From contig CP170459.1 of the NCBI GenBank assembly GCA_047947115.1, forward strand, positions 1,856,001 to 1,920,000: a stretch of 64,000 bases of DNA, in the 5' to 3' direction. Positions 34,639-64,000 of the stretch are shown piece by piece. The DNA comes from Verrucomicrobiota bacterium (GTDB taxonomy: Bacteria; Verrucomicrobiota; Verrucomicrobiia; Limisphaerales; AAA164-E04). The notes under the pieces were generated by a model, which saw nothing but the letters and a program-made list of their open reading frames with translations, was not told the origin of the DNA and did no database searches. The translations under genes and the position numbers were made by a program. Numbering within the stretch: position 1 is the stretch's first letter; each line of letters starts with the position of its first letter.

Positions 34639-34869
34639 TTATGACCCTATGTATTTGGCAATGGCGTCAACGGAACAGAAGTTTGCCAGCTTTAAGTCAA
34701 CGTCCGGAACATCTCGATTGAATTCGTTCTCAACAAAGAGGACGAGTTGCATCGCAAACAAAGAATTTACCAGCCCCTTTTTGAAAATGTCTTCATCATC
34801 TGCCAAACCCGCGACCGAGATGTGTTGGCTTAAGAATTGGCGGATACGATCTTTGTGCTCCTGTTTCAT
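34639..34869 (-). CDS. Stand-alone acyl carrier protein
   Basis: 76 aa; DIFKKGLVNSLFAMQLVLFVENEF and NF.SVDAI. Confidence 0.9.
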   Translation of the reverse strand: MKQEHKDRIRQFLSQHISVAGLADDEDIFKKGLVNSLFAMQLVLFVENEFNRDVPDVDLKLANFCSVDAIAKYIGS

Positions 34870-36590: not shown

Positions 36591-37313
36591 ATGCTAACGG
36601 TTGTGTTAGAGTCAATGTCTGGTGAGCGCGATCTGTCAAAGGAAAAGCAAGCTCAAAAGTTAATCAAAGACGGGGTTATTCTGTCGGTGGGCGGTGGTCT
36701 TCTGCCTGTTCCGATCCTCGATTTGATTGGTATAGCGGGGGGGCAGACCCTCATGCTGAGACAACTTTCCGAGTTATATAGAATTCCTTATTCACAACAC
36801 CGAGCAAAGAACATTATTGCGACTTTGATTGCGAGCTTGGGGACTGGCTACGTCGGAACAGGACTGGTTGCGAGTGTCGTCAAGACGGTGCCATTCGTGG
36901 GGAGCATGGCAGGGGTAGTCAGTTTGCCGATCATAGCCGGGGCATCGACGTATGCACTAGGAAAGGTATTTGTTCAACACTTTGAATCGGGTGGTACTTT
37001 CTTGGACTTCGAACCCGAGAAAACAAAGACTTATTTTGCGCGTCAATTCGCGGAGGGGAAGTTGGTTGTGGGAGAATACAAAGAACATTCTGCTTCGGTT
37101 ACGTGCGACAATAAGTCTGAAGAGGAATCCCTGAAAGGGACTTCCGTGTCTCAAGTGCACTCCTCTGGAGGCGATTCCAACTCTGCTGTCAGCTCCCATC
37201 AATCCGATGTGGATACACCTTCTCATCTCGTCGAGCCCCCTCATCCTTCCAAATCCAGTTCTTCGAGGAAACGATCCCCAAAAAAATCCAAAGGGAAATC
37301 GTCAAGTAATTGA
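36591..37313 (+). CDS. DUF697 (YcjF-like) domain protein with low-complexity Ser/Lys tail
   Basis: GLLPVP.LD.....Q..M...L..LY and TYALGKVFVQHFESGGTFLDF. Confidence 0.8.
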   Translation: MLTVVLESMSGERDLSKEKQAQKLIKDGVILSVGGGLLPVPILDLIGIAGGQTLMLRQLSELYRIPYSQHRAKNIIATLIASLGTGYVGTGLVASVVKTVPFVGSMAGVVSLPIIAGASTYALGKVFVQHFESGGTFLDFEPEKTKTYFARQFAEGKLVVGEYKEHSASVTCDNKSEEESLKGTSVSQVHSSGGDSNSAVSSHQSDVDTPSHLVEPPHPSKSSSSRKRSPKKSKGKSSSN

Positions 37314-46879: not shown

Positions 46880-49800
46880 ACAAGAACAGATCGCGGAAAC
46901 TTACCCGCTGACTCCTTTGCAGGAGGGAATGCTTTTTCACGAGCGTGAAGGGACATCCGGGCAGGCTTATTTTGAACAGTTTGCCTTTACCTTTGAGGGC
47001 GAGCTGGATATCGATCTCTTTTTTTCCAGTTGGAATGAGGTGATTCGCCGACATCCGGTACTTCGGACGATATTTGCTTTCCAAAAAGCGGCGCGACCGA
47101 TGCAACTCGTCTTGAAAGAGTGGGAGGCCAAACCGGAAATCCTGGATTGGCGATCAATGGATTCCCATCGCGTCGATTCGGACTTGGAAACTTTGAAACG
47201 GGACGATCGTCAGCGCCCGTTCCAGCTCAACAAAGAACCCCCCACCCGGTGGACGCTTGTGATGCTGCCGGATCGGAAGATGGTGGTGCTTTGGAGTCAT
47301 CACCATATTATTCTCGATGGCTGGAGCGGAGGGGTTTTACTGAAAGAAGTCCTTGAGGTTTATCAGTCCAAACTTTTGGGGGAAGTCCAGGAATGGAAGG
47401 CTCCACCGAGTTTTAAATCTTTTGTTGAGTGGCTTGAGCAGACGGACTCTTCTGTGGGGTTGGAGCATTGGGATCGTGTCATGGCGACCATGGATGAGAT
47501 ACCTCAATTGCCTCGCGCGGTAGAGCGATCGGAGGACGGAACGTATGTCTTGGAAACGATCAAATTTGAACTTACGCGCGCGCACTCTCAAGCCTTGGAA
47601 CGGCTGGCGCTGGAGTGCGAGATGACCTTGGGGAGTCTGACACAGTTTTTATGGGGGATGGTGGCGGCTCGTTGCGCTGGCAATCTACATACGGCTTTCT
47701 TGACCATTGTTTCAGGCAGAAGTCCGACTTTCCCAGGAATTGAAGATTCCGTGGGCCTCTTTATCAACTCCGTACCTGTCGTTGTCGCAGCTGAGGCCGA
47801 GGATTCCCTGAAAGCATTTGTGGAGCGCAGCTACGATGCATGGCTCGACTCGGAGCAATACCATCACGTTTCGCTGTCTGAAGTTCAGGGAAGGTTGGGT
47901 AGGGGGAGGCATTTCGATCACCTATTTGTGTTTATCAATTATCCCATGGACAAGATGTTGGATGCGTTTCAGCAGAAGTCTTTGGGCTTTCGGCTTGTCA
48001 AAGTGGATGTTTTTGAACATTCGAATTATGATTTGGAAGTGATCGTGCACCCCGGCGATCGAATCCGTTTTGATTTCAAATATAATTCCCATGTTTATTC
48101 CAGCGAGATTGTGTCCGGTTTGGCCGAGGCCATGAGGATTCTTCTTGAACAGGCGGGTTCAAGTCCGAACCCCTTGGTGAGTGATTTGGAGTTAGTATCC
48201 GAGGAAACCCGTTTGCGTTTAATGAATTGGGGAAAGGTGCGTGCGCCGAAAGAGGGAGTCCCTTCCATCATACGGCGCTTTCATTCGACCGCGCTGCAAT
48301 TTCCCGATCGAATGGCGTTGATTTCCGAAGAGGGGAATGTGAGCTACCGCGCGTTGTGGGCGGCAGTCACTTCGTTGGCTGAGGAGATGAGGGAAAAGCA
48401 CGGCATAGGGCCAGGAGACCGGGTGGGAGTGTGCATGCATTCTGGGCGGGGTATGGTGCTGGGCATTCTGGCAGTGCTACATGCCGGAGGAGTTTATGTC
48501 CCCCTTGATCCGAACTATCCTTTGGAGCGCTTAAGATGGATGGTGGAAGACAGCCAAATGCGACTGTTGATTTTGGAGGATGAACTGCAAGCCCGTTTCG
48601 AGGTAATGGGAGTTCGTGCTTTTTTGATTCAGGTATTTCCGAATGCTCAGGGAGAAACCCTGGAGGAATCCGAACCGGGAATTGAAGTTGGGGACGATGA
48701 TCCTGCTTATGTGATTTACACATCCGGTTCTACGGGAAACCCGAAAGGATGCGTTGTTTCGCATGGTAATGTCGCCAAATTGTTCCAACATGAGGGGTTT
48801 CAGTTTGATTTCAACGAGAAGGATGTTTGGATACTTGCTCATTCATTCTGCTTCGATTTTTCAGTTTGGGAAATGTATGGTGCACTCCTTTTTGGTGGGG
48901 TTCTTGTATTGCCCCCTCAAGAAGCCAGGCGCAATCCTGTTCAAATGGTCCGCCTGGTGCGCGAGCATGGCGTATCCGTTCTGAACCAGACTCCGGGGGC
49001 CTTCCTTCAGTTTGTGCAAGCGCATTTCGATGAGCATGAATGTTTGTCCCTCGGGGCGCTTCGATGGGTTATCTTTGGTGGCGATCGTTTGGAGCCAAGC
49101 CGTTTGAAGTTGTGGATACGGCGTTACCCACTTGAGCGCGTGCGTTTGGTGAACATGTATGGGATCACTGAAACAACGGTTCATGTTACCTTCTACCGAT
49201 TGACTGAAACTGACGTGGAAGCCGGCTTAGGAGGGCGCAGTCCGATAGGGCTACCTCTTCCGCATATGGAAGCCTATCTTTGTGATCCATGTTTAAAACT
49301 TGTTCCGCCAGGGATTCCTGGCGAATTTTATATAGGGGGGAGCGGAGTCAGTCTTGGGTATCTGAACCGTCCTGAGTTAACCGAACACCGATTCCTTCAC
49401 AGTCCATTTCGCCACGGAGAGCGTGTTTACCGCACGGGTGACCTCGGAATTTGGCATCCCGATGGTCGGCTTGAATACATTGGCCGGAACGATACACAGG
49501 CCCAGATACGTGGTTTTCGTGTTGAGATGGGCGAGATCGAGGTCCGTGTGCAGCAATTGCCCGGAGTACGCGAAGCTGTTGCAATGCCGGTTTCAGTCGG
49601 TTCAGGTGAAGATGAAGCGATCGCTGCCTACCTTTTGTTGGAAGACGAGGTGAAACGTCGAGGCGAGTTTTCGTCGGAATTCGCCAGAAAATTCCTTGCC
49701 GAGAGAATTCCGACCTACATGGTTCCGAGCTTCTTCATCGTCCTGGATTCGTTCCCGTTGAATCACAATGGAAAAATCGATCGGCATGCGCTTCCTGATC

Positions 49801-52800
49801 CCAGGGTAGCCGCCGCCAGGGCTAGCACGGAAGACATGCCGCGCACGGAGGAAGAGCGTGTTATTTCCAAAATCTGGGCGGAAGCATTGGAACTTGATCA
49901 GGTCGGAATCCGCGACAACTTTTTTGACCTTGGGGGGCACAGTCTTGTGGCGACCCGTATTGCCTCAAGGATTTACAAACAACTTGGAGTTTCGGTGCCG
50001 ATTCGAATGTTTTTCGAGGAATCGACAGTGGAGGCAATAGCCCGAGAGGTTGAGCACGGAAAACCTCTGCCCGAGGAACCTTTGGTGGCGGTGCCTCGGC
50101 AGGATTCCTATCCTCTTTCGAATGCCCAGCGCCGTATGTGGGTTGCAGATCAAGTGAAGGGTGGGGAACCTGCTTACAACCTGGTTGCGCGATACAGACT
50201 CCAGGGATCCTTGAATGTCGAAGCACTTCAAAAAAGCATCTCCTGGGTGGTTGATCGACATGAATCGCTTCGCACATCCATTCATCAGATCGACGGTGAA
50301 CCACGTCAGGTTATCAGTCCGCGAGGTATATTTTCACTGAAAGTTCATGAACGAACCACGGGTGAAGCAGCGGAGGTAATGATTGCCCAGATGGGAAAAG
50401 CCCCTTTCGATTTGGCGGCAACTTCTCTTCTTCGGGTCAGCCTGTTTCCGCTTGGTGCTCAGGAGTGGATACTTGTTTTTTGCCTCCACCACATCATCAC
50501 CGATGGCTGGTCCCTCAGTCTGATGGCCTATCAAATCGGAGTGGCCTACGAGTCATTTTCCGCCGGTCATGCACCAGGGCTACCCGATCTGAAAATCCAT
50601 TACAAGGAATACGCCGATTGGCAGGGACGGGTCATGCGGAGTGGCAAGTTGACACGAGATCGCTCCTACTGGCTCGAACGATTTGGAGAGCATCCTGAAC
50701 CGCTCGATTTGCCTTATGACCATCCGCGTCCGATCGAAAAGTCCTTTGTAGGACAGCACACTCGATTTCAAATGGATAAGGTGCGTCTGGTTGCCCTTCG
50801 AACCCTGGCTGAACGAAACGGAGCGACCTTGTTCATGTCCCTCACCGCTGTCGTCAAGGTTTTGCTGGAACGATTGAGTGGGAATCAGGATATCGTCGTT
50901 GGGACGCCGATCGCCGGCAGGGACCATCCTGACCTGGAAGATCAATTGGGGTGTTATCTGAACACTCTTGCCCTACGGACGACCATTTCAGGCAGAGCCT
51001 CATTCCGGGAAGTATTGCGTGCGGTGAGGACCACGGTGACCGACGCATTCGAACATCGTGAATATCCTTTTGACGTGCTGGTGGATGAATTGCAACTGAG
51101 GCGGGATACTGGACGAGCTCCCTTGTTTGACGTGCTCCTCGGGCTTCAAAGTCAAGCCCCGGTCCTCTTTGGTTTGTCGGGTATTCAGGTGAACTCGGAA
51201 CCCGTGGAAACGGGAAGCAGTAAGTTCGATATTACGTGGAGTTTCGAAGAAGCCGAGGATTGCTTAATGGTCGATATCGAGATCAATACCGATTTGTGGG
51301 ATTCGGAAAGAGCGGGGGATTTTTTCGAACAGTTCCAGCGAATTGTTTCTTTCGCCGTAGAGCATCCGGATGCCGATTTGTCGGAGTTATCCCTGGTGAC
51401 GGATCTGGTCAGAAGGCAAATAGAATCGGAATGGAATCCGGGATGCACACCGTTTCCGGACATGACCGATGTGGCGTCCATGTTTGAAGAACGCGTGGAG
51501 GAATCGCCCGAGGCTATTGCGCTTTGGGATGCCGGCACAGAATTAAGTTATCTCGAATTGAACGGTCGGGCTAACGAGGTGGCTATGGGGTTGCGATCGA
51601 AATTCGAGATCCATCCCGGTGATCATGTTGGCGTGTGCGTTTCCCGCGGAACGGAAGCCATTGTGGTGATCCTGGCGATCCTGAAATTAGGTGCCGTTTA
51701 TGTGCCGATCGATACCTCGTTTCCCGCAGAACGGGCAATTTACCTGGCGCGTGACGGGGAATGCCGCTTGATTGTGAGCGATGAAAGGCAGATGGCGCGA
51801 TTGAGCGAAGGGTTACCGTTCGATTCAGATATTCGCTTGGTGCCAGTCGACCGCTTGTTCGCTCAACTGGAGATGGTTTTCAAAGTGGATGCACGTCGAC
51901 CGGATAACCTCGCATATATCATGTACACCTCTGGATCAACCGGTCTTCCCAAGGGAGTCGCGGTGACACACCGATCGGTTGTGCGTCTGGTTTGCAATAC
52001 AAACTACATCGATCTGAAACAGGGAGATCGTGTGCTGCAGTTCTCGAATATTGCTTTCGATGGTTCCGTGTTTGATATTTTCGGTCCTCTTCTCAATGGA
52101 GCCGCCTTGGTTCTTGTTGACGAGGAAAGTGCTCGGGATCTGGTAAGGTTGCGGGATTTGGTTATGAAAAGCGGTGCGAATATCTCCTTTGTCACGACCG
52201 CGCTTTTCAACCAGTTGGTTGACTTTGATCTCAATTTGCTTGGCAAATTTCGTGCCCTGCTCTTCGGAGGGCAGGAAGCGTCTGTGGATCATGTGAGAAG
52301 AGCCCGTGCCGGCTCATCCGGACTTAAGGAACTGATCCATGTTTATGGTCCGACCGAGACGACGACCTTCGCTACCTTCTATCCTGTCATGAAACTGTCT
52401 GAGGGGTGCCCTCGCGTTCCGATTGGGCGCCCGATCAGCAATACATCGGCCTATGTCTTGGACGCCTACCTGAACCTTCAACCTCCGGGTGTTCCAGGGG
52501 ATCTTTATATAGGAGGACCAGGGTTGGCTAGGGGGTATTGGCGTCATGAGGAGTCAACTCGCGCCCAATTCATTGAGCATCCCTTTCTGAAAGGTGAACG
52601 TCTCTACGCGACCGGGGATCGAGCCATGTGGAATAGGGAAGGCCAGTTGGAATTCCTTGGGCGACGCGATGGTCAAGTCAAGATCCGTGGCTACCGAATC
52701 GAGTTGAGCGAGATCGAGAACGTACTCCTAGGGTATCCGAATTTGTTGCGAGTAGCTGTCACGGCGCGCTCCAACATGTTGGACGGCACGAAGGAGATTG

Positions 52801-54653
52801 TTGCTTATGTTGTCGCGGTGGATGCGTTGGCGCTTGTAGTTGAGGAATTACGGACTTTCATGTCGAGGAGACTTCCAGATTACATGATCCCTGCCCACTT
52901 CGTCGCGTTGGAGGAACTTCCGATAACGCCTAATGGCAAAGTGGACACGAAAGCCTTGCCTGATCCCGATGGGGTCGGTTTAGGGGGCGGCAAGGGCGGT
53001 ATGGAGGCCCGCAACGATCAGGAAAGTACCTTGTTGGCGATTACCAGAGAGATCCTGCGGCGGACAGACATGGGGATTTTCGATAATTTCTTCTCCATGG
53101 GTGGAGATTCGATCAAGGCCATTCAGATTGCCGCTCGTCTGCATGAAATGGGGTATCGGCTTGAGGTCAGGGACATCTTTCTGCATCAGACGATGGAAGA
53201 ACTCGCCGCCGTGCTTCGTCCGGTCGACCCACCGGTGTCTCAGGAGGCCGTTCGCGGCGTGGCGCCGCTAGGGCCGACTCAGAAGTGGTTTTTCGATAGG
53301 ATTCAGGATCAAGCAGGAGGTCATCACTTCAATCAAAGCGTGCGATTGCGATTCCGTGTGCGCATGAAGCTAGAGTGGATCAAACAGGCGCTCGAACAAC
53401 TAGTGATTCATCATGATGCGTTGCGGTGCCGTTTTCGAACGAGTGATCAAGGAGATGTCATCCAGGATTATTCCGACACAACCGTTCGTTTCCGGTTGGA
53501 GACCTTGAGGTCCGTCGAGGAGGGATCTGGCTGTGATGTTCATTGTGTCCAAGCACTTCAGCGTTTGCAGGGTGGGATGTGTCCTGAAGATGGCATGTTG
53601 CTGGGGGCTTTGTTGATTCATGGGGAAGTTTACGATGAAATAGTCATTTCAATTCACCATCTCGCTGTGGATACGGTTTCCTGGAGAATTCTGGCTGAGG
53701 ATCTTGAAGCCTTATTGAACGCGGCTCGCATGGATCAATGCGTTTCGTTGCCCGAAAAAACCACATCCTACATGCAATGGGCCAGTGCGCTGCGCGAAAC
53801 CATCTCGCGGCGGCAACAGTGGTTGACCGAGGAAGAGTCCTTCTGGGAGGCGAGCATTCCCCAACAAATACCCCACTTGTTTGAAGGCCATTTGATGGAG
53901 ACGCCCGGATCGGTGGCCAACGACAGTGCGTTACGACAGGAGTTTCCGGAAGAATCAACCCAGGGCTTGCAGGCGCATGCCGCGAATCGTCCAGGTATCG
54001 GGATGATGGCCCTTTTACTGACAGCCGTCTCAAGGGCGCGCGCTACTCTGGGGGAAGTCTCACCCTTGTTTTGTGCGTTGGAGGGACATGGTCGCGACTT
54101 GTTCGTCGGGGAATCCCTTGAAGTGAATCGTACAGTGGGCTGGTTTACCCACATATACCCTATCTCGATACGACCTGATGAGTCTGGGACAGAGTCGTTC
54201 GGCGACGGATTACTGCGAATCGCCGAGGAACTTGCGCTTGTTCGAAGCAAGCAAATGCCTTTTGTCTTGACCCAATTTGGCAGGAGCTCGAGATTTCCGT
54301 TGAGCGTTAACTACCTCGGGGAGTTTGAATATTCCGCCGAGGGTGGGCTTCTTCAAAGGATCAACGGGGAAGTCGGGCTTTTGGTAGATAAACAGCTTCC
54401 ACGATTTCATGAAGCCGACTTGGTCGCAGAGATTGTCAATGGGCGATTGGTGATAACTCTCTCTTACTCGGTCGTTCAATATGAACCCGGACGTTTGAAT
54501 GATTTTTTCCGTCGCGTCATTGATGAATTGGAAACGGCCGCAAAGGTGACATCGTTCGATTGGGGGAAAAACAGTTCCGTTGCAAGTAAATTTGATGTCG
54601 AGTTCCAGGATTCGGAATTGGATGCGCTGCTGGATAGCTTGGGATCGGATTGA
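46872..54653 (+). CDS. Bimodular NRPS: C-A(Thr)-PCP-C-A(Ile-like)-PCP-E
   Basis: Two C domains (HHIILDG, HHIITDG); A codes read by eye DFWNIGMVHK and DGFFLGVTFK; GGHSL and GGDSI; E motifs. Confidence 0.96.
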   Translation: MLRQEQIAETYPLTPLQEGMLFHEREGTSGQAYFEQFAFTFEGELDIDLFFSSWNEVIRRHPVLRTIFAFQKAARPMQLVLKEWEAKPEILDWRSMDSHRVDSDLETLKRDDRQRPFQLNKEPPTRWTLVMLPDRKMVVLWSHHHIILDGWSGGVLLKEVLEVYQSKLLGEVQEWKAPPSFKSFVEWLEQTDSSVGLEHWDRVMATMDEIPQLPRAVERSEDGTYVLETIKFELTRAHSQALERLALECEMTLGSLTQFLWGMVAARCAGNLHTAFLTIVSGRSPTFPGIEDSVGLFINSVPVVVAAEAEDSLKAFVERSYDAWLDSEQYHHVSLSEVQGRLGRGRHFDHLFVFINYPMDKMLDAFQQKSLGFRLVKVDVFEHSNYDLEVIVHPGDRIRFDFKYNSHVYSSEIVSGLAEAMRILLEQAGSSPNPLVSDLELVSEETRLRLMNWGKVRAPKEGVPSIIRRFHSTALQFPDRMALISEEGNVSYRALWAAVTSLAEEMREKHGIGPGDRVGVCMHSGRGMVLGILAVLHAGGVYVPLDPNYPLERLRWMVEDSQMRLLILEDELQARFEVMGVRAFLIQVFPNAQGETLEESEPGIEVGDDDPAYVIYTSGSTGNPKGCVVSHGNVAKLFQHEGFQFDFNEKDVWILAHSFCFDFSVWEMYGALLFGGVLVLPPQEARRNPVQMVRLVREHGVSVLNQTPGAFLQFVQAHFDEHECLSLGALRWVIFGGDRLEPSRLKLWIRRYPLERVRLVNMYGITETTVHVTFYRLTETDVEAGLGGRSPIGLPLPHMEAYLCDPCLKLVPPGIPGEFYIGGSGVSLGYLNRPELTEHRFLHSPFRHGERVYRTGDLGIWHPDGRLEYIGRNDTQAQIRGFRVEMGEIEVRVQQLPGVREAVAMPVSVGSGEDEAIAAYLLLEDEVKRRGEFSSEFARKFLAERIPTYMVPSFFIVLDSFPLNHNGKIDRHALPDPRVAAARASTEDMPRTEEERVISKIWAEALELDQVGIRDNFFDLGGHSLVATRIASRIYKQLGVSVPIRMFFEESTVEAIAREVEHGKPLPEEPLVAVPRQDSYPLSNAQRRMWVADQVKGGEPAYNLVARYRLQGSLNVEALQKSISWVVDRHESLRTSIHQIDGEPRQVISPRGIFSLKVHERTTGEAAEVMIAQMGKAPFDLAATSLLRVSLFPLGAQEWILVFCLHHIITDGWSLSLMAYQIGVAYESFSAGHAPGLPDLKIHYKEYADWQGRVMRSGKLTRDRSYWLERFGEHPEPLDLPYDHPRPIEKSFVGQHTRFQMDKVRLVALRTLAERNGATLFMSLTAVVKVLLERLSGNQDIVVGTPIAGRDHPDLEDQLGCYLNTLALRTTISGRASFREVLRAVRTTVTDAFEHREYPFDVLVDELQLRRDTGRAPLFDVLLGLQSQAPVLFGLSGIQVNSEPVETGSSKFDITWSFEEAEDCLMVDIEINTDLWDSERAGDFFEQFQRIVSFAVEHPDADLSELSLVTDLVRRQIESEWNPGCTPFPDMTDVASMFEERVEESPEAIALWDAGTELSYLELNGRANEVAMGLRSKFEIHPGDHVGVCVSRGTEAIVVILAILKLGAVYVPIDTSFPAERAIYLARDGECRLIVSDERQMARLSEGLPFDSDIRLVPVDRLFAQLEMVFKVDARRPDNLAYIMYTSGSTGLPKGVAVTHRSVVRLVCNTNYIDLKQGDRVLQFSNIAFDGSVFDIFGPLLNGAALVLVDEESARDLVRLRDLVMKSGANISFVTTALFNQLVDFDLNLLGKFRALLFGGQEASVDHVRRARAGSSGLKELIHVYGPTETTTFATFYPVMKLSEGCPRVPIGRPISNTSAYVLDAYLNLQPPGVPGDLYIGGPGLARGYWRHEESTRAQFIEHPFLKGERLYATGDRAMWNREGQLEFLGRRDGQVKIRGYRIELSEIENVLLGYPNLLRVAVTARSNMLDGTKEIVAYVVAVDALALVVEELRTFMSRRLPDYMIPAHFVALEELPITPNGKVDTKALPDPDGVGLGGGKGGMEARNDQESTLLAITREILRRTDMGIFDNFFSMGGDSIKAIQIAARLHEMGYRLEVRDIFLHQTMEELAAVLRPVDPPVSQEAVRGVAPLGPTQKWFFDRIQDQAGGHHFNQSVRLRFRVRMKLEWIKQALEQLVIHHDALRCRFRTSDQGDVIQDYSDTTVRFRLETLRSVEEGSGCDVHCVQALQRLQGGMCPEDGMLLGALLIHGEVYDEIVISIHHLAVDTVSWRILAEDLEALLNAARMDQCVSLPEKTTSYMQWASALRETISRRQQWLTEEESFWEASIPQQIPHLFEGHLMETPGSVANDSALRQEFPEESTQGLQAHAANRPGIGMMALLLTAVSRARATLGEVSPLFCALEGHGRDLFVGESLEVNRTVGWFTHIYPISIRPDESGTESFGDGLLRIAEELALVRSKQMPFVLTQFGRSSRFPLSVNYLGEFEYSAEGGLLQRINGEVGLLVDKQLPRFHEADLVAEIVNGRLVITLSYSVVQYEPGRLNDFFRRVIDELETAAKVTSFDWGKNSSVASKFDVEFQDSELDALLDSLGSD

Positions 54654-54684
54654 TTGGATTAACACTGAGTAGTTTTTTTGCCGG

Positions 54685-57600
54685 ATGAAAATCAAGAAAG
54701 AGCACATTCAGAACATCTGCAAATTAACTCCGCTTCAGGAGGGGATGCTCTTTCATGCCCTCTTGGACCCGGATTCAACTGCATATATAGAATTGACCCG
54801 TTACCATCTATCGGGGAATTTGGACCTGGATGCGTTTCGCTCCTCATGGGAGCAGCTGGTCGCTCGTCATGAGGCCCTGAGGACGGTGTTTTTGCACAAA
54901 AACACCCCAGAGCCGGTTCAGGTCATCCTCAAGCATCGTCCAATCGAGTTCTCATATGAAGACCTGTCTGTGTTGGATCCCGAGATTCAGGACGAAGCCT
55001 TAAACTCGCGCATGATTCAGGAAGGATCGCATAGGTTCGATCTCAGCCAAGGCCCATTGATGCGTCTCTTCGTGTGTGGGCTGTCTTCAGAGTCGCATGA
55101 GGTGTTCTGGACATATCACCACATCATTCTTGATGGTTGGAGTCTTGGGGTGTTACAGAAGGAATTCTGGGAGATATATCATGCGCTTGCAAACGGAGGG
55201 GGAGCGCATTTGAGGAAACCGGCGCCTTTTTCAAACTACGTCAAATGGTTGCGCTCCCAGTCAGTGGAATCAGCCGAGACCTATTGGAAGCATCGCTTCG
55301 CGCATCCATTGCCGCCTCCGTCATTCCAGCGGTTCGTCAAAAGGTACCCCAAAAAACCATTTTCACGTGACTCCTTTGAAGTTTTTTTCTCTAAGGAAAT
55401 ATCCGAGGGTGTTCGGTCCTTTGCCAGAAGGAATAGAATTTCCTTGAATGCGGCCTTACACGCTGGTTGGTCTATTACCCTCAATGCTGTTTTGGGAATT
55501 GAGGATGTGGTCTTCGGAGAGACCGTGTCCGGACGACACCCGGAGATCGCTGGTGTGAACGGGATGGTCGGATTGCTGATCAATGCCGTGCCTGTCCGTG
55601 TGACATTACGCCGCCAGGAATCATTGAGAGACCTCGCGCTACGGGTGCATGGGGATGCTGTGGAAGCCGAACCTTACCAATTTGCAGCCCTTCCACTCAT
55701 TCAGTCGACGGTGGGAGCGAATGGCTCCCTCTTTGACCATATTTTGGTTTTTGAAAATTATCCGGAAGCCGAGGAAACAGAGCATGCCGACTCCAGGCGT
55801 CGTTTGGTCATCAACCGATTTGAGCACGTGGATCATACGAACTACGGATTAACGGTTCAGTTCATGCCTGCGGAACAATTGGGAATTCGATTCATCTTCG
55901 ACAATAATACTTACGAACCATCCTTGTTGCACCGTGTGGCTGAAACATTCCAAAAGGCGATTAATGGTTTTTGCCACCATGGCGATTTAACGGTGGAAAA
56001 ATGGTTGCTCGAACGTGGGGGGGCAAGCCTTGTAGTCGAAAACGAGTTTTCCGTGGTTTTGACCGCCACCTTTACCGCGGATTTCTTTACAACGGGACTT
56101 GCGGCGTTCGGTCGGCTGTTTGGCCTGCCTATCCGTGTCAAGATCGCCCCCTATCATCAGGTGTGTCAGGAGTTGCTCAATCCCGGAAGCCTTACGGCAT
56201 CCAACCAGGGCATCAACATCCTGCTGGTACGGTGGGAAGATTTTCTTCCCGAGACGGATGCCAAGGAGGCGGTCACCTCCACTTTGGAAAGGGCCTTTGA
56301 GGATGTTTGCCATGCTGTGTTGGCGAGACGGGGGGCTGGGAGGTATGCATGCGTGTTGCTGCCGGTTGATCCGGGATCCTCGGAATGCGTCCAAAGGATA
56401 CAGCGTCAGTGGCGTGAATTCCTTATCCGGGAGACCAATCTGGAAGTGATCGATGGAACTCGGTTGGAACAAAATTACGCCATTGATGGAGTATTTGATT
56501 CGCAGTCTTACCGAGTTGGGAGAATACCTTTTTCCGATCAATGGTTCGCTGCGGCCAGTGCGCTGTTGTTCCGTTCTCTGATGGCTTCGAAGAAGTCCGA
56601 GTTTAAAGTGATCGCCGTCGATTGCGATTATACCCTTTGGGACGGTGTATGTGGTGAATTGGGGCCGACGGAAGTCCGGATTGGACCTTCCCACAAGGCT
56701 CTTCAGAATTACCTTGTTGAAAAGGCAGCCGAAGGTTTTCTAATCGTGCTGGTTAGTAAGAATCGGGAATCAGATGTGTGGGGGGTATTCGAGAAACACC
56801 CAGACATGCAGTTAAAACTCTCCGACTTGGTAACGACTCGAATCAATTGGAACGCGAAGTCGGATAATTTATGTTCTATCTCCAAGGAATTGAATGTTGG
56901 CTTGGATAGTTTTGTTTTTATTGATGATTCACTCGTCGAATGTTTGGAAGTGCTCAATCATGTTCCGGAAGTGCTTGTTGTCAGGGCCCCGGACGCGGAT
57001 ATCGCTGATCCGGACCTCTATTTTTCCCACGTTTGGGCTTTTGATCGATTTCGCATCACCGAAGAAGATCGGCAACGGGGAGAGATGATGCGGGCAGAGC
57101 AAGCACGGAAGCAAGCATGCAGCGAGATGTTGGTTTCCACGGATGACAACAGGAGCGGGACGCAACTGGATCGATTCATCCGCTCCTTGGAGGTCGAAGC
57201 AGACCTGCGACCAATCGCCGAGCATCAATGGGCTCGAGCGGCTCAACTGACTTTGCGCACGAATCAGTTCAATTTGACAGCCCACAGAATGTCCGAACAT
57301 GAATTGCGGGCATGGGCCGAGAATGAACAGAGTTTTGCCTGGATCGTTCGAGTGCGGGATCGCTTCGGTGATTACGGCGTTACGGGGTTGATTTGCGGTC
57401 GCGTCGAAGGTTCCGATCTCATCTTAGATCAATTCCTGTTGAGTTGCCGCATCCTTGGTCGTGGCGTTGAGGAGGCTATCTTGAAAGGGTTGAGCCAACA
57501 CCTGGATAAGAGGATCATAGGCGCCTTACGAGTTTGCTTTCTTCGGACGGAAAGAAACCAACCCGCACTGGATTTCCTCGAACGCTCGGCTTGGAGCTTG

Positions 57601-60600
57601 GTAAGGGACATGGGACAAACGGCCGAGTATCGCATAGAATTAAAATCTATCAGTCAACTCAAGATCTCGTCCAAGATTATCGTTCATCAACACCCTGAAC
57701 CGGAACAAACAGTCGAACTCGACGTTCCAATGAAATCTCCGGGCATGGCCGTAGACGAGAAACCGAATACCCAGCGCATACAAGATTGGTCGAACTGGAT
57801 CAACTTACCGGAGAGCAAGGATCCCCGTAATCGAGCCTACAGTGAAATGCTTCGATTGACTCACGCATCGTCCCTTCTTGCGTTGATAAATCAAATTTCG
57901 AACACGGACAATCCGTCTGTTTCCGTGGGAGGAAAACTCCCTCGTTCAGGAAATCGGAAAAGTCGGCCGAGCTTCGCACCTGCAACAACAGGAACTGAAA
58001 AGATACTCTTGTCGGTCTGGGAGGATTTGCTCGGATTGAACCAGATTGGAATCGACGAGGATTTTTTTGACATTGGAGGACATAGCTTAAAGGCAACGAG
58101 AATGGTATCTCGGATTCACAAGGTCTTTCAAAAGGAGATCAGTTTGAGTTCCGTGTTTGAAGAAAGGACCATCCGCCAATTAGCCCGCAAAATCGATGGA
58201 GGGCGGAACGATTGGGAAAAGATTCCGAAGCTTGCGAGCGGAGTTGAATTTGTTCTTTCACATTCCCAGCACAGGATGTGGGCCCTCCATCAGTTGGAGC
58301 AGAACTCTATAGCCTATAACAGTACGGGTTTTTACTGGATCAAAGGCGACGTTGATGTCGAACGGTTGCGAAATGCACTGGTCTCCGTTATCCAGGAACA
58401 TTGCGTCCTTCGTGCAGTTTTTCAAGATACCGAGCAAGGTCTTCGCATGATCGTTCGGGATTATGACGATTCTCAGGTTGTCATTATCACTGAAAGTGAA
58501 AGAGGCCGTCCCTTGTCGACACAGGACTTGGAACTTTATGCGAACGATATTACCCGGAAATCGTTCCGCTTGGATTGCGGTCCTCTTTTCTTGGTAAGAG
58601 TGTTGGTGATGGATTCTGGACGCATCCTGCTCGCCTTGCATATGCACCATATCGTCAGCGACGGAGGATCTCTCGATCTTTTTCAACGGGAAGTAATGAC
58701 GCGTTATTCCACAAGTCTCACGACTGATGAAAGCAGCGGTTTCGAAAGAACCAAAAAAGGAATTAGTTATCCCGATTATGCCGTTTGGCACAATCAATGG
58801 GTGGTGAGCGAATCCGGCCTTCGATCCCGTGATTATTGGATACGTCAGTTGACGAAGTTGCCACCACCGCTTCCTCTGCCGACGGATCGTACTCGACCAC
58901 CTGTCCAGTCCTTTCGGGGTGCGGCCGTGAAAATACGTTTGGCGGCACCCGAATGGGAACGTTTAGTCGAGCTTTCATTGAATGAAGGAGGTACTCGGTT
59001 TTCCGCGTTCGTGGCGATTGTTAAGATCCTGCTTCACCTGCACTCTCGGCAAGAGGACATTTTGATAGGCACTGTGGTAAGTGGGCGAGACCATCCCGAT
59101 TTGGAATCGGTCGTAGGTTTGATCGCTAACACGATCGCTTTGCGAGACATGTTGGATGAGGCATCCACCGTGAACGACGTGTTCAGTCAAGTAGCCAAAA
59201 CTTGTCGAGAAGCTTTTTCCCATCAGGGATATCCTTTTGATTTAGTGTTGGAATCCTTGAATTTGGAACGGGATCTCAGTCGTTCGGCGCTGTTTGATGT
59301 CATGGTCAATTACCATGGTGATGTTCCAAACTCCGAAGAGAATCCGATTGTCTTCGAAGAGTGGGAAATCGACTCACCTTTATCCCGCTTCGATTTGACG
59401 TTCAATGCCCTTGAATCCGAATCCGGGCTCATCGTCAAGCTCATCTACAACGTGGACATATTTGATCGGGAACGGATGGATCGGATCGGACAGCGTCTGT
59501 GCGCCTTGGCCTCCAATGCCAGTCAGGATCCTTCCGTGAAGCTCATGGAACTGAACATGCTTCCCAAACAGGAAATAGCATGGTTGCATAGCCGATTCTA
59601 TCCAGAACGCGTTGATTACCCGACTCATCTAAATCTCACGGAGATATTGGATGAAGTGGCGACAGCCCATGGCTCGACCCTGGCATTGGCATCGAACGCA
59701 TTGAGACTTACCTATTCCGAGCTGGTGACGGCGACCGTCCATATCGCGGATGCCCTTGGAGAAACGCTTGGTGACTGCCGTCGACAGATCGTAGCCGTAT
59801 CCATGACATCGCGTCCTCTTTCGGTGGTGGCAATGTTGAGTGTGATGAGGGCGGGCGGATGTTATTTGCCTGTTGATCCTTCCTATCCCAAGGAGAGAAT
59901 CGATTACCTTTTGAATGATTCTGGAGCTTGCGTGTTGATCACCGATACGGAGCGACATGAGATAGGAGACTTGGCTGGAGAACTCAAAGTGATGACGGTG
60001 GATCTTTCCTTCCTTGCCGAAATCACCGCCGGTGGGGCTTCAACTCCCCTATCGAGACGGTCTTATGCGGAGGGCTCTGATCCGGCCTATGTCATCTATA
60101 CATCGGGCTCGACCGGACGGCCCAAAGGAGTCAGCGTGACGCATCAAGCCTTTGTCAACATGATCACCCAACAGATAAAGACCTTTGATGTGCGGCCAAA
60201 TGATCGCGTTGTAATGTTCGCTTCATTGTCTTTCGATGCATCTTTGTCGGAGATTTTTATGGCGCTATTGAGCGGCGCAACACTTTACTGTCCGTCGCGG
60301 GAATGCATTCTGGACGGACGCCGACTGGTCGAATACATCCAAGACGAACAGATCACCATAGCCACCTTACCTCCACTGTATCTCAGGGCGCTGGGGCAAC
60401 CGGATCTAGGAACACTGAAAACACTGATTACAGCTGGTGAATCCGCGGTGCCCAAAGATGCGGCACATTATTCCAAGGATGGACGCCTGCAATATATCAA
60501 CGCTTACGGTCCCACAGAATGTTCCGTATGCACGAGTATGTTTCTTGTTCCTCGGGGATGGCGGGGAGAAAAGGTTCCCATTGGCAAACCTCTGGACAAC

Positions 60601-62787
60601 CTGGGAGTTTGTATCGTCGATCAGCAAGGCCGATTGGTGCCTGTCGGGCATCCGGGCGAAATTTTAATTCGCGGCGACGGATTGGCGGAAGGATACCTCG
60701 GCCAACCGGAATTGACGGTTCAACGATTTGAGACTCGGCCCCAAATACCTTGGATACATGGGAGACTGTATTCAACGGGAGATCTGGGGCAATGGACGGA
60801 AGAAGGCGATTTGCTCTACTTAGGTCGGATCGATGATCAACTGAAAATTCGGGGTCATCGGGTCGAGCCTGGGGAAATCGAACAAATTCTTTCTTCCCAT
60901 GAGAGTGTCACTGAAGGCTGTGTCATTGGGCATCAAATGGGCACCGGCTCCCAGGGGCTTGTAGCATTTTACGCAGGAACAACGACTCAAGCTGATTTGC
61001 GGGCTTACCTCAGAGAACGTTTGCCCGGACACATGGTTCCAACACAAATCGTGCGCGTCGACAAGTTGCCTGTCACTCCAAATGGCAAGATCGATAAATC
61101 CGCATTAAGTATTCCCGAAGCTGAGTTCGCGGAAGCTCCCCGGACTCCCACCCAGAAAGAGCTTCTTTGGATTCGCATTTGGAAAAACGTGTTGGGTGTA
61201 GCCGAGGTTCGTTTGGACGATTCATTCTTCGAGCTTGGAGGGGACTCCATAAAGGCAATTTTAGCCGTCAATCAAATGCTCCGTCAGGGATATCAGGTGG
61301 AAGTGCGCGATCTTGTGTTGCACCCAACTATACATGAATTGGCTCCTATGCTTCGGACAAATGTAAAGAGAGACCATGCTGCCAACCATGCTCGAAGCGT
61401 ATCGAGTGAAGTCGTGCCTCTGACGCCGATCCAGCACTGGTTTTTCAGGGCATTCGGAGACGAACGGGATCATTTTAATCACTCGGAAATGCTCCATTCT
61501 GTCGAGCCATTCGATAAGATTTTACTTGAGCAGGCTATCCAGTCACTGTGGAAGGAACACGATCAGCTGCGCGCTCGATTTCGAATGAAGGCAGAGACTA
61601 ACAAGGATCGGACAGTCTGGGAGCAATATATCCCTGAGGCCAGAGAAGAAAATATTTTACGTGAATTTGACTTAACGAAAGAGGACCAGCCTGATTCCCG
61701 TTTGCTACAATTCGCCAATCAACTGCAATCAAGTTTCCGCCTATCTGAGGGACCTTTGATGGCCGTGGGATTGTTTCGGTGTAAGGACGGGGATCGATTG
61801 CTTTTCGTGATTCATCATTTGGTCGTCGATGGGGTATCCTGGAGGTTGTTGCTGGAGGATTTTCAAGAAGCTTATCAATCCTTGAAAGCTGGTTTCGGTT
61901 GGGAACCGAAAGCGAGGAGCGCGTCCTATTCGGAATGGGCGCATGCTTTGGTTAAACTCTCTTCCCGAGAGAATCTTGCGAGGCAGCGTAGCTATTGGAA
62001 GAAGGTATTAAGTTTTCGCGGACCGGATCTCCCTTTGCGTGGGGTTTCCCTTGGAAGACTTCGATCCGAACAAACCTTTCGTTCCATTGAACTAAGTGCG
62101 GAGGAAACCAAGCATTTGTTGAATCATGCCGACTCGGGGAGTCAAGTGGTGGATTTCATTCTCGTGGGGCTGGGCTTGGCACTACACAGCTGGTCCGGCA
62201 TGAAACAATGCCTCATTGCCTATGAAACCCATGGGCGGCATTGGATAGAAGGGATGCCCCGGATAGATGTTTCCCGCACTGTAGGTTGGTTTACAAATGT
62301 GTTTCCGATGATACTTGATATCCGGCCCGAACAATCGTTGCAGAGCAATGTCAGACGCATCGCTGAGGCTAGGGAGTCTGTTCCCGGACATGGAATGGGA
62401 TTTGGCATCCTGGCCTATTTGGCAGGCGATGCGAATACTGCCGATGCGGGGCAACAGCCAAGAATTAGCTTCAATTACCTTGGGCAATATGAAAAACCAG
62501 CTGAAGCGACTTTTGAGGTTGGATTGGATGCGGACGGTGAATCCGTCAGTTCCAAAGCTCGACTGAATTATGATTTGGAGTGGAATGCGATCTTGCTGGA
62601 TGGCCGATTGAAAATCGTGGTGGCGTATGCTGAGGGGGCTTTGAGCGAGCCTGATGTAGAGTTATTGCTCAGATGTTTGTGGGAATCCATGGTGAGTGGA
62701 GCGGAAGTTGATGAAATCGAAGGTTCAAGTTCGGCGCTCGAACATATAGGGTCAAATTATGAGGAAAACACGACAACCAGGAGGTAA
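54685..62787 (+). CDS. NRPS with embedded FkbH: C-FkbH-carrier-C-A(Tyr/Phe-like)-PCP-E
   Basis: HHIILDG; FkbH motifs DCDYTLW.G, SKN, INW..KS, FIDD, RTNQFN, DRFGDYG, LSCRILGRGVE; GGHSL; HHIVSDG; A code DASTIAAVCK; GGDSI; E domain; no TE or R domain. Confidence 0.96.
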   Translation: MKIKKEHIQNICKLTPLQEGMLFHALLDPDSTAYIELTRYHLSGNLDLDAFRSSWEQLVARHEALRTVFLHKNTPEPVQVILKHRPIEFSYEDLSVLDPEIQDEALNSRMIQEGSHRFDLSQGPLMRLFVCGLSSESHEVFWTYHHIILDGWSLGVLQKEFWEIYHALANGGGAHLRKPAPFSNYVKWLRSQSVESAETYWKHRFAHPLPPPSFQRFVKRYPKKPFSRDSFEVFFSKEISEGVRSFARRNRISLNAALHAGWSITLNAVLGIEDVVFGETVSGRHPEIAGVNGMVGLLINAVPVRVTLRRQESLRDLALRVHGDAVEAEPYQFAALPLIQSTVGANGSLFDHILVFENYPEAEETEHADSRRRLVINRFEHVDHTNYGLTVQFMPAEQLGIRFIFDNNTYEPSLLHRVAETFQKAINGFCHHGDLTVEKWLLERGGASLVVENEFSVVLTATFTADFFTTGLAAFGRLFGLPIRVKIAPYHQVCQELLNPGSLTASNQGINILLVRWEDFLPETDAKEAVTSTLERAFEDVCHAVLARRGAGRYACVLLPVDPGSSECVQRIQRQWREFLIRETNLEVIDGTRLEQNYAIDGVFDSQSYRVGRIPFSDQWFAAASALLFRSLMASKKSEFKVIAVDCDYTLWDGVCGELGPTEVRIGPSHKALQNYLVEKAAEGFLIVLVSKNRESDVWGVFEKHPDMQLKLSDLVTTRINWNAKSDNLCSISKELNVGLDSFVFIDDSLVECLEVLNHVPEVLVVRAPDADIADPDLYFSHVWAFDRFRITEEDRQRGEMMRAEQARKQACSEMLVSTDDNRSGTQLDRFIRSLEVEADLRPIAEHQWARAAQLTLRTNQFNLTAHRMSEHELRAWAENEQSFAWIVRVRDRFGDYGVTGLICGRVEGSDLILDQFLLSCRILGRGVEEAILKGLSQHLDKRIIGALRVCFLRTERNQPALDFLERSAWSLVRDMGQTAEYRIELKSISQLKISSKIIVHQHPEPEQTVELDVPMKSPGMAVDEKPNTQRIQDWSNWINLPESKDPRNRAYSEMLRLTHASSLLALINQISNTDNPSVSVGGKLPRSGNRKSRPSFAPATTGTEKILLSVWEDLLGLNQIGIDEDFFDIGGHSLKATRMVSRIHKVFQKEISLSSVFEERTIRQLARKIDGGRNDWEKIPKLASGVEFVLSHSQHRMWALHQLEQNSIAYNSTGFYWIKGDVDVERLRNALVSVIQEHCVLRAVFQDTEQGLRMIVRDYDDSQVVIITESERGRPLSTQDLELYANDITRKSFRLDCGPLFLVRVLVMDSGRILLALHMHHIVSDGGSLDLFQREVMTRYSTSLTTDESSGFERTKKGISYPDYAVWHNQWVVSESGLRSRDYWIRQLTKLPPPLPLPTDRTRPPVQSFRGAAVKIRLAAPEWERLVELSLNEGGTRFSAFVAIVKILLHLHSRQEDILIGTVVSGRDHPDLESVVGLIANTIALRDMLDEASTVNDVFSQVAKTCREAFSHQGYPFDLVLESLNLERDLSRSALFDVMVNYHGDVPNSEENPIVFEEWEIDSPLSRFDLTFNALESESGLIVKLIYNVDIFDRERMDRIGQRLCALASNASQDPSVKLMELNMLPKQEIAWLHSRFYPERVDYPTHLNLTEILDEVATAHGSTLALASNALRLTYSELVTATVHIADALGETLGDCRRQIVAVSMTSRPLSVVAMLSVMRAGGCYLPVDPSYPKERIDYLLNDSGACVLITDTERHEIGDLAGELKVMTVDLSFLAEITAGGASTPLSRRSYAEGSDPAYVIYTSGSTGRPKGVSVTHQAFVNMITQQIKTFDVRPNDRVVMFASLSFDASLSEIFMALLSGATLYCPSRECILDGRRLVEYIQDEQITIATLPPLYLRALGQPDLGTLKTLITAGESAVPKDAAHYSKDGRLQYINAYGPTECSVCTSMFLVPRGWRGEKVPIGKPLDNLGVCIVDQQGRLVPVGHPGEILIRGDGLAEGYLGQPELTVQRFETRPQIPWIHGRLYSTGDLGQWTEEGDLLYLGRIDDQLKIRGHRVEPGEIEQILSSHESVTEGCVIGHQMGTGSQGLVAFYAGTTTQADLRAYLRERLPGHMVPTQIVRVDKLPVTPNGKIDKSALSIPEAEFAEAPRTPTQKELLWIRIWKNVLGVAEVRLDDSFFELGGDSIKAILAVNQMLRQGYQVEVRDLVLHPTIHELAPMLRTNVKRDHAANHARSVSSEVVPLTPIQHWFFRAFGDERDHFNHSEMLHSVEPFDKILLEQAIQSLWKEHDQLRARFRMKAETNKDRTVWEQYIPEAREENILREFDLTKEDQPDSRLLQFANQLQSSFRLSEGPLMAVGLFRCKDGDRLLFVIHHLVVDGVSWRLLLEDFQEAYQSLKAGFGWEPKARSASYSEWAHALVKLSSRENLARQRSYWKKVLSFRGPDLPLRGVSLGRLRSEQTFRSIELSAEETKHLLNHADSGSQVVDFILVGLGLALHSWSGMKQCLIAYETHGRHWIEGMPRIDVSRTVGWFTNVFPMILDIRPEQSLQSNVRRIAEARESVPGHGMGFGILAYLAGDANTADAGQQPRISFNYLGQYEKPAEATFEVGLDADGESVSSKARLNYDLEWNAILLDGRLKIVVAYAEGALSEPDVELLLRCLWESMVSGAEVDEIEGSSSALEHIGSNYEENTTTRR

Positions 62788-62927
62788 CTTAATAGCATTG
62801 ATAAATAATGAAATTCTAATTATTATTTCGCAATCTATTAAGAAGTTCGGTGGTCTGAGGTCGCTAGAGAATTTTTTGTAGGCGTGTTAAGACAGCTAGA
62901 AACTCAATATTAAAAAAGGAAAATATA

Positions 62928-64000
62928 GTGAAAACATTAATCACCATCTTGTTATTAATGGCGGCTTCATGTGTGATGACCTCCATGGTCGAGGCTCAGG
63001 ATTTGAGTGTCCAAAGGGCAATTCAGGTCGAATTCCCAACGGAAGCCGGTAAGAAGTATCAACTGCAATTTGGGGGAACGGTCAATGGACCTTGGTTTGA
63101 TTGGGGGGGGGCATTTGAAGGGACGGGCGGAGTGGCGCAGCGCGTTTCGGTGACCGTTGGGCAAGAAGCGGGCTTTTTTCGGCTTCAAGTGTCAGGCGAG
63201 GTCGTTCTTACACAATTTAAAAAGGATGCTATCAACGCCCGACTGGCTCAGGCAATTGACGATTTCGGTATCCCTGGCATTGCTGCAGGGATCTGGGTTG
63301 GGGAAGAGGAACCGTGGTTGACCGCGCGAGGGCTTGCTAATCTGGAAACAAAGGAACCACTTACCCCGGATCATCGCTTTCGAATCGGAAGCGCTTCCAA
63401 GACATTTGTTGCGATGGCGGCGATGCAACTGATCCACGAAGGCAAGGTAAGGTTCGACGATGTGATTACTCGCTATCTGAATCAGGAGGAGATGGATGCG
63501 CTAAGCGCCTACAATCTGGACGCGATCACGGTTCGCATGCTGTTGCGGCACACAAGTGGTTTTGCCAACTACACTTCGGATGTGCCAACTTGGTTTTTGC
63601 CCTATATTACTGATCGCACCCGGGTATGGAATAATTTGGAATTACTCAAGATAGCGAATGCGCCTGCAGGGCCCGATGGCACGCCGGAAACGGTTCCATT
63701 ATTTACACCGGGCATCGCATGGAGTTATTCAAATACCAACTACGTGTTGCTTGCCATTGTTGTCGAGCGCGTCACGGGTGAGTTCATTGGCACTCAGTTG
63801 GCCAAGCGCTTTTTTGAACCGCTCGGATTGATGCAAACTCGTTACCCGATTCCCGGTGAGTCGGAGATCCAAGGTGACAAAGTTTCCCGTGGTTATATGA
63901 ATTGGCGCAATATGCTCAATGGCGAGACTTCCGTACCTGCCGGGCTTATTGATGTGACTCAGTACGATCCATCCGGAGTTGGACCGGCTGGCCCATTGAC
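62928..64000 (+). CDS. Exported serine hydrolase, beta-lactamase class C / D-peptidase fold (runs off the window; not in the ORF track)
   Basis: GTG start after AAAGGA; my translation gives signal peptide MKTLITILLLMAAS...VEA, then FRIGSASKTF (SxxK), LLRHTSG and WSYSNTNY (YxN). Confidence 0.88.
   Translation, partial: MKTLITILLLMAASCVMTSMVEAQDLSVQRAIQVEFPTEAGKKYQLQFGGTVNGPWFDWGGAFEGTGGVAQRVSVTVGQEAGFFRLQVSGEVVLTQFKKDAINARLAQAIDDFGIPGIAAGIWVGEEEPWLTARGLANLETKEPLTPDHRFRIGSASKTFVAMAAMQLIHEGKVRFDDVITRYLNQEEMDALSAYNLDAITVRMLLRHTSGFANYTSDVPTWFLPYITDRTRVWNNLELLKIANAPAGPDGTPETVPLFTPGIAWSYSNTNYVLLAIVVERVTGEFIGTQLAKRFFEPLGLMQTRYPIPGESEIQGDKVSRGYMNWRNMLNGETSVPAGLIDVTQYDPSGVGPAGPL

Follow-up and report, generated by a model that had tools for sequence, protein, structure and literature searches.

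The cystomanamide and vioprolide synthetases have both been named as assembly lines that carry an FkbH domain in the place of an adenylation (A) domain (PMC8949500). The cystomanamide line of nonribosomal peptide synthetases (NRPSs) is tabulated as (C-A-PCP-E)3-(C-fkbH-PCP)4-(C-A-PCP-E-TE)5 for the sequence Asn-Asn-Phe-glyceric acid-Tyr, where C, PCP, E and TE denote condensation, peptidyl carrier, epimerisation and thioesterase domains, and cystomanamide B is listed as cystomanamide A with additional Tyr and glyceric acid (PMC9581180); where the ester sits in cystomanamide B is taken here from two reviews. For vioprolide, an ester-forming C domain is described beside the FkbH (PMC8949500), and corramycin is reported to have a vioprolide-like start, FAAL-ACP-C-FkbH-T (ACP, acyl carrier protein; T, carrier domain; PMC10099666). 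Here we describe ORF3, an NRPS protein encoded in a window of 64,000 nucleotides from a Verrucomicrobiota bacterium (contig CP170459.1 of assembly GCA_047947115.1, positions 1,856,001 to 1,920,000). Our analysis indicates that its first module, C1-FkbH-T1, very probably loads glycerate and esterifies one of its hydroxyls with an upstream peptidyl chain ending in D-Ile or D-Val; a predicted Tyr module then acts.

Architecture of the C-FkbH-T module

ORF3 is a single open frame on the forward strand (54685-62787, 2700 aa) with the domain order C-FkbH-T-C-A-T-E and intact motifs. Pfam detects three condensation-family stretches, two carriers and one AMP-binding domain; since the latter lies at aa 1656-2005, the first module has no A domain. 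In its place, as a sequence-only reading of the window had proposed, stands a complete FkbH (56050-57714) with an N-terminal extension and a TIGR01686 core at 56602-57588. The NCBIfam match to TIGR01686 (aa 640-968) scores 252 bits, above the curated cut-off of 146.65 bits, and the family motifs are all there: HAD motif DxDxT (DCDYT at 56620), DD (FIDD at 56917) and SCR (57442, with its cysteine at 57445). FkbH is preceded by C1 (54685-56004), whose HHIILDG motif at 55117 is intact, and followed by T1 (57985-58200, GGHSL at 58075), the predicted glyceryl carrier, and by a second condensation domain, C2 (58249-59574, core HHIVSDG at 58645), which is of LCL type by tree and profile scores; this flanking order had also been described correctly. 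The second module continues with an A domain (59635-61110) of code DASTIAAVCK, predicted to specify Tyr, and closes with carrier T2 (GGDSI) and a terminal E domain (61150-62679). ORF3 stops 35 aa past E and has no in-line TE.

A short-read contig from run X3, which may itself be the source of this DNA, covers 46000-64000 with six substitutions and no gaps, so the structure of ORF3 is not an assembly artefact. All seven domains are kept, at 54-61% identity, in the orthologue of a related genome, G018. Three metatranscriptome runs gave short contigs over ORF3; these come without a silent-stretch control and are not used as evidence of expression.

On the precedent of vioprolide and cystomanamide, FkbH would load glyceryl onto T1 from 1,3-bisphosphoglycerate. 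C1 would then take the D-Ile/Val-ended chain from the preceding protein, ORF2, and link it to the hydroxyl at position 2 or 3 of glycerate, presumably as an ester because glycerate has no amine; C2 would add Tyr, which the E domain would epimerise. Because glycerate has two hydroxyls and genes of the cluster specify two dehydrogenases as well as an aminotransferase domain, the glyceryl unit might instead be oxidised, aminated or doubly acylated as a branch point on its carrier, giving something other than a simple single ester. We consider this very unlikely, given that the dehydrogenases come with a stand-alone FkbH and a small carrier of their own, no tailoring domain is present in the module, and its cystomanamide homologue is described as giving plain glyceric acid (PMC9581180).

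Comparison with the cystomanamide line and other FkbH proteins

An NRPS of Cystobacter fuscus, P0241 (UniRef A0A068FHE7), reads DCL-FkbH-T-LCL-A-T-E-TE and carries the code DASTVAAVCK, which agrees with that of ORF3 at nine of ten positions. The cystomanamide synthetase of this species was reportedly described by Etzbach in 2014, and P0241 is presumably its terminal protein, CtmD. P0241 and the window domains share 33-42% identity per domain, and their FkbH domains fall in one clade (support 0.87). In both systems DCL-FkbH-T-LCL-A(Tyr code)-T-E lies downstream of an E module, and a beta-amino acyl head group is common to both, in the present line by prediction. They differ in that P0241 has an in-line TE, whereas the window line lacks one and has a stand-alone TE; in the upstream residues, tabulated as Asn/Asn/Phe there as against His-like, Thr and Ile(Val) codes here; and in the starter, which in the present cluster is an adenylation-methyltransferase-polyketide synthase (PKS) protein. 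The present cluster travels with a D-peptidase-like hydrolase bearing a likely signal peptide.

The rarity and novelty implied by the sequence-only reading are not supported, since the published cystomanamide table already shows this E / C-FkbH-PCP / C-A(Tyr)-PCP-E order, with Tyr at module 5 (PMC9581180). Among the best 119 of 1022 homologue matches, labelled by nearest seed domain, C directly precedes FkbH in 110. An A-T module lies upstream in the chain in 47 of these and a ketosynthase (KS) module in 27, while N-terminal DCL-FkbH and N-terminal LCL-FkbH account for 18 proteins each; 16 of the 18 N-terminal DCL-FkbH proteins were scorable, and 11 have a DAST(I/V)AAVCK code next. It is common for a C-FkbH module to have other modules before it, and the design is already published and widespread. 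What stands of the earlier proposal is its mechanism, which the DCL class of C1 and the fused chains described below support.

Two further designs were seen among the homologues. Four proteins (P0003-P0006) have two C-FkbH-T modules per chain, suggesting two consecutive glycerate esters. NRPSs of ~4055 aa from Bacillus, Paenibacillus and Brevibacillus (P0060, P0071, P0072, P0081, P0104, P0116) have an insertion of ~500 residues separating C from FkbH, with ketoreductase (KR) and MaoC Pfam matches, which may turn glycerate into lactate mid-chain.

Class of the first condensation domain

By its sequence, C1 is a condensation domain of the DCL (D-donor) type with an intact HHxxxDG motif, and not a starter domain. 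Its best solved relatives are domains of BacC (bacitracin synthase 3), McyB, TycB (tyrocidine synthase 2) and SrfA-C (surfactin synthetase), with E values of 2e-79 to 5e-67, all of which we take to act after D-residues; the C1 of CDA matches it at only 5e-4. In a FastTree phylogeny of 104 C domains, in which the LCL rows are a random subset, C1 lies within the DCL clade (support 0.999) with ClbB and the C domains that follow E, and ClbN and EntF lie elsewhere. Profiles were built from eight after-E, eight of 26 after-T and two starter domains, with pre-FkbH domains excluded; C1 scored 375 bits with the first, 173 with the second and 45 with the third. The starter score, the CDA match and the position outside ClbN and EntF all separate C1 from the starter class, and the grouping with starter types that the sequence-only reading had considered was not seen.

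These results bear on whether ORF3 initiates a chain of its own, glyceryl-Tyr, in which case C1 would be idle or would take a fatty-acyl starter in the manner of vioprolide and corramycin. The window module resembles those two systems in that FkbH replaces A, the C domain acts (here by prediction) to esterify glycerate and the ester has been tied to the idea of precursor cleavage (PMC8949500, PMC10099666). C1 does stand at the protein N-terminus, FAAL-ACP-C-FkbH-T starts are published (PMC10099666), and the cluster contains an acyl-adenylating starter protein. However, the donor reported for vioprolide and corramycin is fatty acyl, whereas a D-peptidyl donor and a DCL domain are predicted here; no FAAL-ACP precedes C1, which is N-terminal, and the protein before it is an NRPS with a final E domain. 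The C domain before FkbH in P0280, a Cystobacter sp. protein that is presumably vioprolide-like, scores as LCL, whereas C1 is DCL, retains its motif and shows the same degree of conservation as the adjoining domains (56% identity to G018). Fused E-DCL-FkbH chains exist, and the adenylating domain of the starter feeds a PKS module. A separate chain is thus highly unlikely. P0280 itself reads FAAL...C-FkbH-T-E, with an E domain after the glyceryl carrier.

The C domains before FkbH are dispersed: they occur within the DCL clade and in several LCL groups, and amide-type after-E domains are nested among them. Since they do not form one clade, class follows the chirality of the donor and is not in itself direct evidence of ester formation.

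Position of the module in the assembly line

Two forward-strand genes precede ORF3. ORF1 (37382-46879) is a PKS-NRPS with the order KS-AT-ACP-aminotransferase-C-A-T-E (AT, acyltransferase) that is predicted to supply a beta-amino acyl unit and add D-His; its A-domain code, DMALVAEVWK, agrees at eight of ten positions with a published His signature, DSALIAEVWK (PMC12283262). Its AT carries an unusual HAIH motif. ORF2 (46872-54653), the predicted donor, reads DCL-A-T-LCL-A-T-E with the codes DFWNIGMVHK (Thr) and DGFFLGVTFK, the latter presumably for Ile/Val. Both proteins end in acidic docking-like tails that are conserved in G018.

In the window the mid-chain position is seen only as gene order, and it is the fused relatives that fix it. 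A survey of 401 genomes of the phylum found 55 with FkbH above the cut-off and, besides the host genome (G000), four with FkbH in a frame longer than 4000 aa. In three of these four, G307, G148 and G203, C-A-T-E-DCL-FkbH-T-C-A-T-E forms one protein, with an Ile-type and then a Tyr-type code and a Thr module upstream. The His-like module is also present in G307 and G148, and the corresponding module of G203 is without an A domain; this first NRPS module (G203:C1:1280886-1289045) reads aminotransferase-C-T-E and is possibly trans-loaded. E-DCL-FkbH fusions were also found in two of 95 further proteins. Together with the DCL class of C1, the fused chains indicate that the sequence-only reading was likely right in placing the module mid-chain after an E domain, with a D-peptidyl donor and a glycerate hydroxyl as acceptor.

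The same fusions bear on whether gene order differs from assembly order, with ORF1 feeding ORF3 first and ORF2 acting last. Such an order would be compatible with the DCL domains at the start of both ORF2 and ORF3 and with the E domains that end all three proteins. We regard it as extremely unlikely, as in the fused relatives DCL-FkbH comes immediately after Ile-E, and DCL-Thr after His-E, and as a donor-like tail is present on ORF2 and absent from the ORF3 orthologue. In G018 this orthologue, like the fused forms, finishes directly after E, with no docking-like tail.

Read in gene order, the line would make a polyketide beta-amino acyl-D-His-Thr-D-Ile-O-glyceryl-D-Tyr, exported by the ABC transporter of the cluster; the residue identities are those suggested by the A-domain codes. 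Several points weigh against this account of the module. No ester-specific clade or motif was found among the pre-FkbH C domains, and ester chemistry cannot be proven by sequence. The starter reference set consists of two sequences only, and the A-domain codes are predictions, with the His code matching eight of the ten positions of the published signature. The FkbH domains of the fused relatives belong to a different clade from that of the window, so these proteins are analogous lines rather than nearest kin.

Chain release and the companion hydrolase

The line terminates in E without a TE in the host genome, G018, G307, G148 and G203. The candidate release enzyme is a stand-alone TE on the reverse strand (33841-34629, GYSLG), recognised by Pfam and motif, which shares 30% identity with the in-line TE of P0241 and matches that TE type far better than it matches other tails. 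Since such TEs resemble one another generally, this similarity only weakly suggests that it would release the chain in trans, as a linear acid. The stand-alone TEs of G307 (G307:C8:152290-153288) and G148 (G148:C6:484914-485879) have an N-terminal extension that appears MbtH-like by motif.

Directly downstream of ORF3 lies a beta-lactamase-family (PF00144), D-peptidase-like hydrolase of 539 aa (62928-64000, forward strand, extending past the window end), with SxxK, YxN and HxG motifs and a signal-peptide-like N-terminus. Its nearest solved relatives are alkaline D-peptidase, the R61 DD-peptidase and a D-stereospecific amidohydrolase (DAH), with E values of 1e-57 to 1e-45, against 9e-17 for SurE; the structure model has a mean pLDDT of 77.7 and a low-confidence tail. 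Pfam gives only PF00144, with no C-terminal lipocalin-like domain, and no ClbP-like C-terminal transmembrane helices were found (best 19-residue hydropathy window, 1.29). By hydropathy heuristics alone, 64 of 65 family members stay below 1.9 for a membrane segment and 54 of 65 have a signal-peptide-like start, which argues for export. The family (alignment A1, P0121-P0185) has a conserved C-terminal PLxEY after the low-confidence linker and variable N-terminal accessory domains.

The hydrolase follows the module pair closely. Seven of the 401 genomes have a match at E 1e-25 or better. The strong ones (E 3e-77 or better), from the host genome, G307, G148 and G203, lie within the cluster or next to it, and these are exactly the four genomes with the module pair; the remaining three matches are at 33-34% identity, and none was seen in G390, where the C-FkbH line belongs to a different type. 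Among metagenome loci, with two truncated matches (L072, L077) set aside, 16 of the 21 strong ones have another gene of the cluster, as against none of 11 weak ones. The NRPS end itself is seen at five of the 16, two of them with DCL-FkbH in view, and the five strong loci without a cluster gene are contigs of 1.3-4.9 kb. The 21 strong loci form 12 groups at 90% identity, eight with a marker; related loci are not independent.

As a stand-alone enzyme of penicillin-binding protein (PBP) fold next to a line with no TE and a terminal D-residue, the hydrolase recalls the PBP-type TEs SurE, PenA and WolJ, which are described as requiring a C-terminal D-residue and as being used with 'EG' leaving groups, which we read as ethylene glycol esters (PMC11735501). 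The window enzyme differs from them in lacking the C-terminal lipocalin domain, having a signal-peptide-like N-terminus and being closer to D-peptidases. Given the signal peptide and the lack of a lipocalin domain, we gave SurE-type on-line release less weight as a role for it. ClbP and the S12 DL-peptidases Lip3 and Lip7 are reported as exported S12 hydrolases that cut beside D-residues and alter the activity of non-ribosomal products (PMC12903863), but here no membrane anchor was found, there is no N-acyl-D-Asn start module, and the candidate bond is an ester.

The hydrolase most likely trims the product after export. It may cut the D-Ile-O-glycerate ester, as in prodrug trimming, which we put forward tentatively; glycerate and Tyr are listed for cystomanamide B but not for A (PMC9581180), consistent with a cut at the glycerate ester. 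Somewhat more doubtfully, it could cut an amide beside a D-residue, for trimming or self-protection (cf. Lip3/Lip7, PMC12903863). It is improbable that the exported enzyme uses D-Ile-O-glycerate as an acyl donor and closes a 13-membered ring onto the beta-amino group. DD-peptidases accept D-Ala-D-lactate, which D-Ile-O-glycerate would mimic, and the glycerate-D-Tyr tail would be a built-in leaving group; the idea arises from this and from the D-residue requirement and leaving groups of the PBP-type TEs. The absence of a lipocalin domain, the weak SurE similarity and the need for a beta-amine, not an L-amino terminus, to act as nucleophile speak against ring closure, and plain ester hydrolysis is likelier. 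The prodrug idea of the earlier reading is plausible, with the hydrolase as the candidate enzyme.

Cluster context and distribution

The cluster is bounded on the left by a transposase (DDE_Tnp_1_4, 32024-33376). Near this edge lie a small carrier protein with LVNSL (34639-34869, reverse strand), which has a weak carrier-profile match (E 0.63), no Pfam match and look-alikes in G018, G148 and G307, and a DUF697 protein (36591-37313, forward strand, Pfam) that recurs in related clusters. Past the window the genome encodes the rest of the beta-lactamase-family protein, the adenylation-methyltransferase-PKS starter, the ABC transporter, a second, stand-alone FkbH, two dehydrogenases, a phosphopantetheinyl transferase (PPTase) and an SPFH gene. 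Recurrent companions of the cluster are the SPFH-domain gene, a neighbour of 519 aa and DUF697 genes (G000:C1:1938546-1941185; L049, L056, L067).

Stand-alone FkbH proteins with dehydrogenases and a small carrier form the usual extender-unit cassette. The second FkbH, dehydrogenases and PPTase (G000:C1:1934313-1938382) likely constitute a hydroxymalonyl extender cassette, with which the small carrier of the window likely pairs, and the cluster may use glycerate twice. Both FkbH types are also present in G307 and G148.

The starter gene (G000:C1:1920634-1931629; L001:1835-12830) is broken into three frames in the assembly, whereas all four short-read contig sets, which come from four studies, have one extra base at each break. 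The G018 starter is one intact protein of 3632 aa in a cluster with the same genes. A broken cluster is ruled out, as both frameshifts are absent from all four contig sets. The PRMT-like methyltransferase domain of the starter is 89% identical to that of G018, far above the cluster average. In G148 (G148:C6:477481-484584) the starter A-domain code is VGSWVAASGK, which we take to resemble phenylpropanoid-loading starters such as McyG and to hint at an aryl polyketide head.

The host genome yielded no other NRPS C domains. Of 41 related genomes, G018 alone has a full-length match, and none of seven same-genus genomes (75-94% complete) matches. A scan of genome contigs gave five loci, of which one, the Limisphaerales record L013, is a close relative (56%) and four are stand-alone FkbH proteins without NRPS domains. 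One of 281 matching plasmid records covers 80% of C-FkbH-T and is unannotated. Half or more of the sampled words turned up in 14 of the 24 listed runs, which carry the labels aquatic, marsh, estuary, seawater, urban or plain metagenome. Since the GC content of the cluster (0.506) matches that of the genome (0.511), there is no compositional sign of recent transfer. Literature searches of titles and abstract starts found no publication describing this cluster family.

Biological implications

The module design itself is already known; what is distinctive is the cluster family, with its companion hydrolase and its TE-less end. A DCL domain that forms esters would be an engineering part for depsipeptides, and ring closure by the hydrolase, if true, would be macrocyclisation of a nonribosomal peptide outside the cytoplasm, driven by an ester rather than a thioester. 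The combination of a predicted D-amino-acid ester with a dedicated, probably exported and D-specific hydrolase would let a designed cut or transfer role of mid-chain glycerate esters be tested. As an uncharacterised cluster family that recurs in several aquatic lineages, it is a useful lead for genome mining.

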